From Stylophora pistillata (lineage: Eukaryota): a stretch of 64,000 nucleotides of DNA. Positions within the stretch are counted from its first letter, which is position 1. Each line of letters starts with the position of its first letter. The stretch covers positions 294,283-358,282 of the forward strand of contig NW_019217850.1 of NCBI RefSeq assembly GCF_002571385.2. The letters are read 5' to 3'. The position numbers and the translations under genes are program-made. The notes beneath the pieces are model-generated. The model ran no database searches. It worked only from the letters and a program-made list of their open reading frames with translations, and was not told the DNA's origin. Below, in pieces: positions 46,301 through 47,807 of this stretch.

Positions 46301-47476
46301 TAGTTAGATTGTTTGGCGTAGAGTGCAGGACCTATAAACTATAAAGTTCACTTTTTAGCTGAGATAATTGGACCTGTTGGTAAAAGCAACGGCAGAACTG
46401 TGGCCCATGAAAGTGTGTAACCTGTTCACTTTTCTGTATTACATACTGTGACTAAACAACTTAGTGCTAGCATCTTGCCGTCAAAAAATCGCCGGCTTAC
46501 AATATAGTGCAGTCGAAACAGTCAACAGGTTCGTATATTCCGCTACTTTTAGAGAAACTACAGGGTTAAATGAGATTTGAAGGTCATATAAATTTTTAAA
46601 TTCTTGTTATAAGTGCAGTTGTTCTCCAGTGGAGGAGAGACTCTTCCTAAGTTATATCATTTCGACTCTTTATCTTTTGTAATGATCCATCGCTTCTGGT
46701 AACAGAGGCCTCCGAAAACTCCATGTTTATTTCAGGACTATAACCTGTTTTTGTCGCATTTGTCTAAGCCAAGAATATTTGAAACTTCCCACTATTTTTC
46801 GTCACGAAACTCTGCTCTGTGCTTTGTGGTTAAGCTCGTTCTTACAACCAAGCAGGGTTTGTGTCACTGATTTCAAAACTTTATTGTCAGTTGTTCACTG
46901 AAAAGATTCTCTAATGGATATAATCAAGACAAAATAGTGAAGAGGCCCCATTATTTTTATTTCTGTATCATGAAATGTACTTCCAGGTTTCGGAATTGAT
47001 TACGCTTATCTAAAATATGGCACTAGGTGTCAAATTTGGTTGCCTTACTTTTGAAAGAGTCGAAGGGTTAGGTCACGGTTTTGGAGTTGATTCTTGTAAC
47101 TTGCATGGAGAGCACCTCCAAGGTTTAAGAGTCAATTGTATACATGAGAAAGTCATAGCCAAGAGGTTTTGCAAATCTTTTGAGCTTACAAAGCATTAAT
47201 AGTCATATGTGTTGATGGAAATGTCTCTTAGTTTTGTAAGAATAAGGGGCTTTATAAGTGACTCACCTTTTTTGTGATCATGTTCTGTTGGTAAGTATAC
47301 CTCGAGTCTCGATTATTCTTCACGCAAGTAGTAATGTCTTTATTTGGTTTGGATGTCCTTTTTCTTTCCCATCCTTTCTCAGGATATCTCAGTTTAAATT
47401 CTCTCCGAACTTTTCTTCGCCTTGTGCTGGCTGCACGGCACCTTTTGGTTTTCAAATGCTGTTCCAGATGAGTCAT
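43316..47476 (-). CDS. ETS-C: highly diverged ETS paralog (possibly a pseudogene), ~168 aa; exons 47476(47517)-47267 and 43612-43316
   Basis: KNMTHL..REFKLRYP..RDSRYTYQQNMITKK|VPGQRFVYKL aligns to ETS-A with the same phase-0 AAG|GTGAG intron; C-terminus TSIPVSVIQR is identical to ETS-A; conserved Trp residues are lost; upstream exon 47728-47629 (MVFS..) has an in-frame TAA at 47671-47669. Confidence 0.7.
43891..45741 (-). pseudogene. Decayed repetitive Q/P/K-rich coding-like segment inside the ETS-C intron
   Basis: Recurrent minus-strand motifs LQNVQQPSL, SKEIQQPKL, SQMFKQPNS, LQNAQQAML, LQTLEQPSS, VKKEPKL with stops and frameshifts; strong CAACC(A) strand bias; acceptor CTCACTGTTTACAG at 45742 and donor GTAAGA at 43890. 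Confidence 0.4.
44999..45074. repeat. 76-nt hairpin (35-bp stem, 2 mismatches, 6-nt loop)
   Basis: AAGACAACAACCAAATTGTCTCCAA..TTGGAGACAATTTGGTTGTTGTCTT. Confidence 0.9.
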
Positions 47477-47807
47477 ATTCTTTTGGCCAAGTAGTGTAGC
47501 CTCTGAATATATTTTCTCTGTTTAAGGGATTAAGATAATTTGAACTGAACACTGAATCTGTATAACCCAGAAACAAATGTCATTTAAAACTTGTTACTAA
47601 AGTTAACCCAATCTACAAATAGTCTTACCGAGAGCTTGCGAAATTGCAAGAAATTTGGGGTCTAAATCTTAACGAAACTCGCTGGACAGGCGTCTATGCT
47701 TGTGGCGATGAAAATTAGAGAATACCATTGCCGCTAGAGTAAGCAATGTTGGGTCCAATGTGTTAGTCGTTGCATGCAAGGACTTTTATGTCATAAAAGA
47801 ACTTAGA

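Follow-up and report, generated by a model that had tools for sequence, protein, structure and literature searches.

A decayed ETS family gene with an open reading frame in two pocilloporid genera, possibly encoding a basic modulator of its sibling factors

In silico, our analyses showed that the Stylophora pistillata gene LOC111325060, which carries the RefSeq label "uncharacterized protein" and has three coding exons for 191 aa, belongs to the ETS family by descent. This follows from homology, an intron position in common and orthology to intact ETS genes. By Pfam score and by its tryptophans and helix-1 core, however, it no longer holds a functional ETS domain. The gene lies on the minus strand of the window, i.e., of the whole 64,000-nucleotide stretch of DNA that was analysed. 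It likely encodes a working protein rather than being a dead gene, because the frame is open in two genera and because basic residues and two tail motifs were kept. We tentatively propose a basic, probably unfolded nuclear protein that would bind a cofactor of its sibling ETS factors and titrate it, without reading GGAA sites itself.

All exons were placed on the minus strand. Exon 1 (48307..48367) holds the 5' UTR, the ATG at 48334 and 28 coding bases (48334-48307) without a stop, exon 2 (47267..47517, 251 nt) holds the decayed, K/R-rich ETS domain, and exon 3 (43316..43612) holds the last two ETS strands, a low-complexity tail and the stop codon. Coding stretches of 28, 251 and 297 nt add up to a 576-nt open frame with a translation identical to XP_022784503, and the exon joints have GT..AG ends. 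The preliminary description of this DNA had seen a peptide without a stop and an intact donor. Both were borne out, with a minus-strand open frame that starts at 47482 and reaches the exon end at 47267, where the donor is used in RNA contigs. The anticipated junction 47267>43612 is present in contigs of runs X1, X2, X3 and X9 and, among the listed joints, not in X5, and the joint 48307>47517 in all five runs that gave joints (X1, X2, X3, X5 and X9). In contrast, the proposed "exon 1" with an in-frame stop (47629..47728, minus strand) is intron sequence. Five of five runs join 47517 to 48307, and we discarded the segment as an exon, with no joint at 47629 among those listed and an unbroken contig (47489-48336) crossing this position in X1, X2, X5 and X9. 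A restart at the ATG at 47476 inside exon 2 had been suggested as a way around that stop; the ATG is real, but the restart is unneeded because this ATG already starts the annotated 168-aa isoform X2.

At least half of the sampled words of 47240-47760 were found in 20 of the 24 listed runs, nine of which are on record as RNA. Contigs of eight of the 24 runs were aligned and joints came from five, of which X3, X5 and X9 are polyA RNA-seq on record and X1 and X2 presumed RNA; neither strand, expression level nor absence can be read from such contigs. X21 and X24 showed traces of the gene only, and X15 covered 43060-46039 only, without joints. All five runs read Gly20 of the reference as Arg, the residue of intact relatives. 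Upstream, a further exon (48781..49090, minus strand) is non-coding in Stylophora and is joined to exon 1 in X2 (48781>48367), its coordinate 49090 being the limit of aligned homology and not a mapped 5' end. It shows two stops and three frameshifts against Pocillopora P0022. In Pocillopora P0021 and P0012 this exon is an open frame that adds a long N-terminal extension, and the Stylophora 48781>48367 splice form, read from the sequence, has a six-codon upstream frame with its ATG at 48789. At 44000-46000, intron 2 contains a stretch that is strongly A-rich on the sense strand (AT skew -0.2). Short Thr/Lys-rich frames occur in it, and it may be the remnant of a mobile element.

Relatives were collected by a scan of 1.84 billion representatives, which gave 10 matches at E<=0.001, and by profile searches in which 31 of 2052 and 25 of 547 candidates were accepted. 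In Pocillopora, the orthologue (cluster of LOC113678525) shares the lesions of the Stylophora gene, and its frame is open as well. The ETS domain is intact (Pfam Ets 100-111 bits) and the tail the same in three Oculina patagonica genes and in Orbicella faveolata XP_020631589. With these intact C-type orthologues (XP_078342618 of O. patagonica and XP_020631589), the Stylophora gene shares descent, exon layout, RxxRY spacing, the last two strands, the tail motifs and the position beside ETS-A; locus L020 likewise has ETS-A and the C-type gene on one strand, with ETS-A upstream, as in the Stylophora window. Two further coral lineages have partly eroded domains (60 and 79 bits). P0017 (L015, L018) lost the third tryptophan and has an insertion in the recognition helix, and in P0084 (L016) the second arginine became lysine. 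These two erode separately (domain omega 0.36 and 0.8, respectively), and Oculina holds three intact copies. Across the orthogroup, Pfam Ets scores descend from 107-111 over 100, 79, 60 and 26-28 to 17 bits. A tree of 18 proteins unites the decayed pair with the six C-type proteins in a single clade (100/100), in which a long stem (0.95) leads to the decayed pair.

Searches of the Stylophora genome (G000) with exon 2 and with the C-type tail returned this locus only, in an assembly that may be incomplete. The gene hence looks like a converted orthologue rather than a spare duplicate. The fully decayed form occurs in two genera only, Stylophora and Pocillopora, which counts against our preferred explanation. 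Word-based searches yielded no decayed orthologue that was Seriatopora- or Madracis-like, a weak negative, and a metagenome scan gave nine loci, none of them Pocillopora by tblastn identity; locus L022 was rejected as a chance match. The orthogroup forms a graded natural series of intact, eroded and wrecked domains, along which a fold appears to give way to a basic disordered region with charge and short motifs still under selection; such an origin of disorder thereby becomes testable.

The peptide of exon 2 is identical to the ETS exon of the neighbouring ETS-A at 27 of 78 positions (BLASTP, E 1e-7), and the DNA alignment agrees on homology, yet exon 2 alone gave no Pfam Ets match. The 191-aa protein reached 17.0 bits (PF00178), below the curated cut-off of 26.9, and the Pocillopora orthologue is borderline to it at 26.0-28.0 bits. 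All three ETS tryptophans are gone, as had been noticed before. In the DNA-guided alignment, the first was lost by deletion and the second and third were replaced by Arg and Lys, respectively. The helix-1 core, also described as missing, is lost, and four codons are deleted across the beginning of helix 1. Absence of all three tryptophans and the 4-codon deletion are common to Stylophora and Pocillopora. BLASTP pairs the one tryptophan left in Stylophora with the third ETS tryptophan. The DNA alignment and Pocillopora identify this pairing as an artefact, since the residue lies three residues off the ETS position and is Val in Pocillopora.

Compared with ETS-domain factors such as ELK1, FLI1 and ETS1 (PF00178), the Stylophora protein thus lacks the conserved tryptophans and four residues of helix 1. 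Of 32 columns at which 11 intact cnidarian ETS proteins never vary, it retains 17 and Pocillopora 14. From established ETS structure, a domain lacking the three tryptophans and the helix-1 core would neither fold nor read GGAA. We infer that the fold was lost and, because the hydrophobic core is gone, specific DNA binding as well. Between the two decayed genera, invariant columns are kept no better than variable ones (17/29 vs 31/51 identical), so that the ETS fold is no longer protected. Moreover, 19 of the 70 columns at which Oculina equals Orbicella carry a change common to both decayed genera, and much of the decay is therefore older than the Stylophora-Pocillopora split. AlphaFold2 with a 4-row alignment returned a mean pLDDT of 49 and no ETS fold for the 191-aa protein; the intact Oculina control, at 43.5, failed too.

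Charge is among what was kept. In agreement with the K/R-richness described earlier, lysine and arginine make up 26 of 80 residues of the region, compared with 20 of 84 in intact orthologues. Stylophora equals Pocillopora at 21/26 of these basic sites but only at 27/54 of the others (Fisher p=0.007; simulation p=0.007). K/R control sites were identical at 8/17 in the flanks and 6/14 in exon 3, and in the tail of an intact paralogue at 9/12, next to 80/108 for other residues. Neutral simulation to the same identity, for which an extant Orbicella-type sequence was taken as the ancestor, yielded 17+/-3 instead of 26 basic residues (P<=0.004) and 26-28 instead of 19 hydrophobic ones (P 0.001-0.016). 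Both genera kept all six ETS-invariant basic residues but only 8 of the 26 remaining invariant ones (p=0.003), and new RRRK and RKR clusters arose. These K/R tests are post hoc, picked after inspection of the data, so their p values are nominal, uncorrected for multiple testing, and refer to two genera.

The relic of the recognition helix, RxxRY (47297..47311, minus strand), retains its spacing as stated in the preliminary description, and its arginine pair at RxxR spacing, aligned to ELK1, is present in both genera. In some alleles it has Leu instead of Ser, nearer to the ETS consensus. The claim that recognition arginines were kept thus holds for their presence but not for a special sparing of the recognition helix, as basic residues were retained domain-wide (21/26).

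The tail downstream shows a second kind of retention. In 15 non-pocilloporid sequences 26 of its columns are conserved; 20 of these persist in Stylophora and 18 in Pocillopora, compared with 17 and 14 of the 32 ETS-invariant columns. Two motifs, CPxCLCPRF (43466..43492, minus strand, from an alignment of 17 exon-3 sequences) and SIPVSVIQ (43331..43354, minus strand), are identical in both decayed genera save for the variable x. The overall tail contrast, 19/23 vs 35/57, is marginal (p=0.055). CPxCLCPRF is a mark of this orthogroup, and CPxCLC was absent from the other cluster genes scanned, whereas the C-terminal SIPVSVIQ motif is common to several intact cluster paralogues, in which PVSVI-type ends recur. 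Stylophora has lost 24 tail residues, among which intact orthologues have a W-S-x-P element. The last four residues of either decayed protein are R-I-S-F (43319-43330). This ending, which intact orthologues lack, fits the PP1-docking RVxF pattern, although such patterns are common by chance. The V-x-V-I of the tail corresponds to a SUMO-interacting-type core, but acidic residues are missing beside it.

Another partner was considered for the SVI core. An RxSVI motif binds the IRF2BP2 RING domain with an essential arginine (PMC11608337), and among the proteins encoded by the Stylophora genome is an IRF2BP whose C-terminus is RING-like. The tail resembles these RxSVI proteins in its SVI core but has Pro at the place of the essential Arg, two residues before SVI, in 17 of 17 aligned sequences; for this missing Arg we rejected the reading. 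When residues 152-191 of the tail were co-folded with the RING of the coral IRF2BP, the runs gave no answer (0.61, 0.01 and 0.01).

Disordered regions show this pattern of charge kept without order, together with short motifs. We hence favour, with reserve, that an ETS factor turned into a basic disordered nuclear protein bearing the tail motifs of its family. Its basic segment could serve nuclear import and loose contact with nucleic acid, and the C-terminal motif common to the cluster would bind a putative cofactor of the intact siblings. Titration of this cofactor would dampen transcription by the sibling ETS factors. A decoy or dominant-negative had been envisaged in the preliminary description, and competition for GGAA sites would be the least likely form of it. 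It is rather doubtful whether one may go further and regard the protein as a first natural "pseudo-ETS", in which the sole pocilloporid copy would have been converted under selection to a charge-conserved disordered basic region that brakes the ETS cluster via an undescribed PVSVI-type motif, with other corals part-way.

DNA-binding-deficient relatives of transcription factors are known. Id proteins are HLH proteins without the basic region, HOPX is a homeodomain without DNA contacts, and Drosophila Mae likewise is a DNA-binding-deficient relative. As proposed here, LOC111325060 would join them as a family member unable to read DNA that acts via a kept protein contact. Those proteins, however, gave up the DNA contacts and still have a folded interaction domain, whereas here the fold seems dropped, and basic contacts and short linear motifs were kept. 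ETS domains bind DNA as monomers, so there would be no obligate dimer to poison. The dominant-negative isoform Ets-1 p27 keeps its ETS domain and competes for sites. Like p27, the Stylophora protein derives from an ETS factor and could work against intact ones, but it is encoded by a separate gene, with the domain core lost and the tail kept. In the literature searched, which included few subscription journals and excluded supplements, we found no ETS counterpart of pseudo-enzymes or of DNA-binding-dead HLH or homeodomain proteins. Likewise, that literature, with its few subscription journals, held no relevant paper on LOC111325060, XP_022784503 or a degenerate ETS domain. ETS factors are reported among the heat-responsive genes of pocilloporid corals (bioRxiv 10.64898/2026.07.18.739195; PMC11639872). 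A lineage-specific modulator of the ETS cluster that is missed by Pfam-based annotation would, if true, be overlooked in studies of the heat response.

The directional gain and retention of basic residues with concomitant hydrophobic loss, as well as the new RRRK and RKR clusters in both genera, would also suit a new role apart from the siblings. The disordered basic segment might then bind RNA, chromatin or nucleoli and the cysteine motif a metal or a protein, and there would be no decoy. Since CPxCLC is missing from the other cluster genes scanned, it could not compete with them. We nevertheless consider this unlikely, as the SIPVSVIQ end that was kept is common to paralogues and no library match to another family emerged, an IRF match at 0.78 being a lead only.

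The reading frame was compared with that of Pocillopora at the protein level, and Pocillopora genomic read-through proteins served for the flanks. There was no stop or frameshift in 177 aligned coding codons, in contrast to five stops (one at the alignment edge) and three frameshifts in 140 codons of non-coding Stylophora flanks. One more shift at the UTR/ORF border brings these to 8-9 breaks, and two flank segments (4/19 and 7/28 identical) were excluded for poor alignment. The contrast amounts to about p=0.001, on an earlier count. For the domain, neutral simulation predicts about five stops and a probability of none of about 0.01. All indels between both genera are in frame at the protein level. 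With the 576-nt frame open, the disabling stops or frameshifts that mark a pseudogene were not found. Frame retention in exon 2 needs no function of the domain because the tail lies downstream.

Codon models on six genes gave a domain omega of 0.24-0.36 on the Stylophora branch (below 1, p 0.002-0.003) and 0.08-0.14 in intact genes; the branch value mixes time before and after the decay, and a synonymous distance of about 1.5 makes all these omegas rough. Outside the motifs, the tail is neutral (omega 0.8-1.1), and the motif omega near 0 is circular because the motif columns were picked with Stylophora in view. The preliminary description would have given up its reading for random stops and frameshifts with a dN/dS near 1. 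Random stops are absent and the frame is open, but part of this test did go against the reading: at its non-basic sites, exon 2 has diverged at the pace of the non-coding flanks (27/54 vs 83/140 identical, p=0.26). Its view that this is not a neutral pseudogene nonetheless gains from our data, as the gene is spliced and open in a second genus and its basic residues and tail motifs were retained non-randomly. Post hoc statistics on these alignments support selection on the frame, on K/R sites and on the tail motifs, and none on the ETS fold.

A transcribed gene that decays under little or no selection, the frame surviving by chance and weak constraint, appears more improbable still than a new role. 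It would explain that exon 2 is as similar between Stylophora and Pocillopora (51/82, 62%) as are the translated non-coding flanks (83/140, 59%), that the tail outside the motifs is neutral and that the start codon is unconserved, the Stylophora start Met being Val in Pocillopora; the orthogroup also erodes in P0017 and P0084. It is at odds with the unbroken 177 codons, the in-frame indels and the K/R excess, and no intact duplicate was found in the genome. Four synonymous against two replacement differences among those listed for the RNA contigs point weakly in the same direction. Finally, a recognition helix and wing that still fold, on DNA or on a partner, to recognise an altered or less stringent site are quite improbable. 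The six invariant basic residues, the last two strands (10/12 identical), the branch omega below 1 and ETS as the top match in PDB and Atlas searches would fit, but neither the three tryptophans nor the helix-1 core have survived, several positions of the recognition helix are gone as well, invariant columns are unprotected between the genera, and the branch omega covers pre- and post-decay time.

The siblings that titration would affect lie next to the gene. In the window, intact ETS-A (54972..57371, minus strand, Pfam Ets 97.8 bits) lies upstream on the same strand, and intact ETS-B (62296..64000, plus strand, 91.9 bits) has its ETS exon at 62296-62535 and a next exon from 63872 that runs past the window end, so that the cluster extends beyond it. 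A genome search with ETS-A gave 21 matches, nine of them on contig C67 (350-421 kb) and two on C159. A search with the gene itself puts it at 341.5 kb of C67, i.e., at one end of a tandem ETS cluster. This cluster comprises about ten ETS genes (C67 at about 337-421 kb, C159 at 391-406 kb), several with PVSVI-like ends, and no description of it was found in the literature searched. At one cluster locus (L004:3497-3688; C67:371493-371693), the ETS exon match ends before the recognition helix inside a 402-codon open frame. The next exon of L004 is nearly identical to that of L003. A recent duplicate that carries an insertion might lie behind this, or else a gap in the assembly. Counts of ETS sites near three promoters (3, 2 and 0 in about 2 kb each; 38 in the window) gave no signal.

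Other parts of the window contain a Hedgehog-type gene with a Hint domain (6134-8913, minus strand, E 1e-59) and exons of an exonuclease/endonuclease/phosphatase-like gene (35258-38413, minus strand) with a weak Pfam match (E 0.08), the nearest gene seen downstream of LOC111325060. Between ETS-A and ETS-B, at 59283-59385, there is a near-perfect, MITE-like palindromic repeat of about 100 bp, which recurs at 4100-4211 and 16712-16781. A second palindromic repeat of about 350 bp (42635-42979 and 29154-29544) lies beside an assembly gap and occurs in great numbers in RNA contigs. At 31853-33018 there is an inverted repeat pair of 334 bp.
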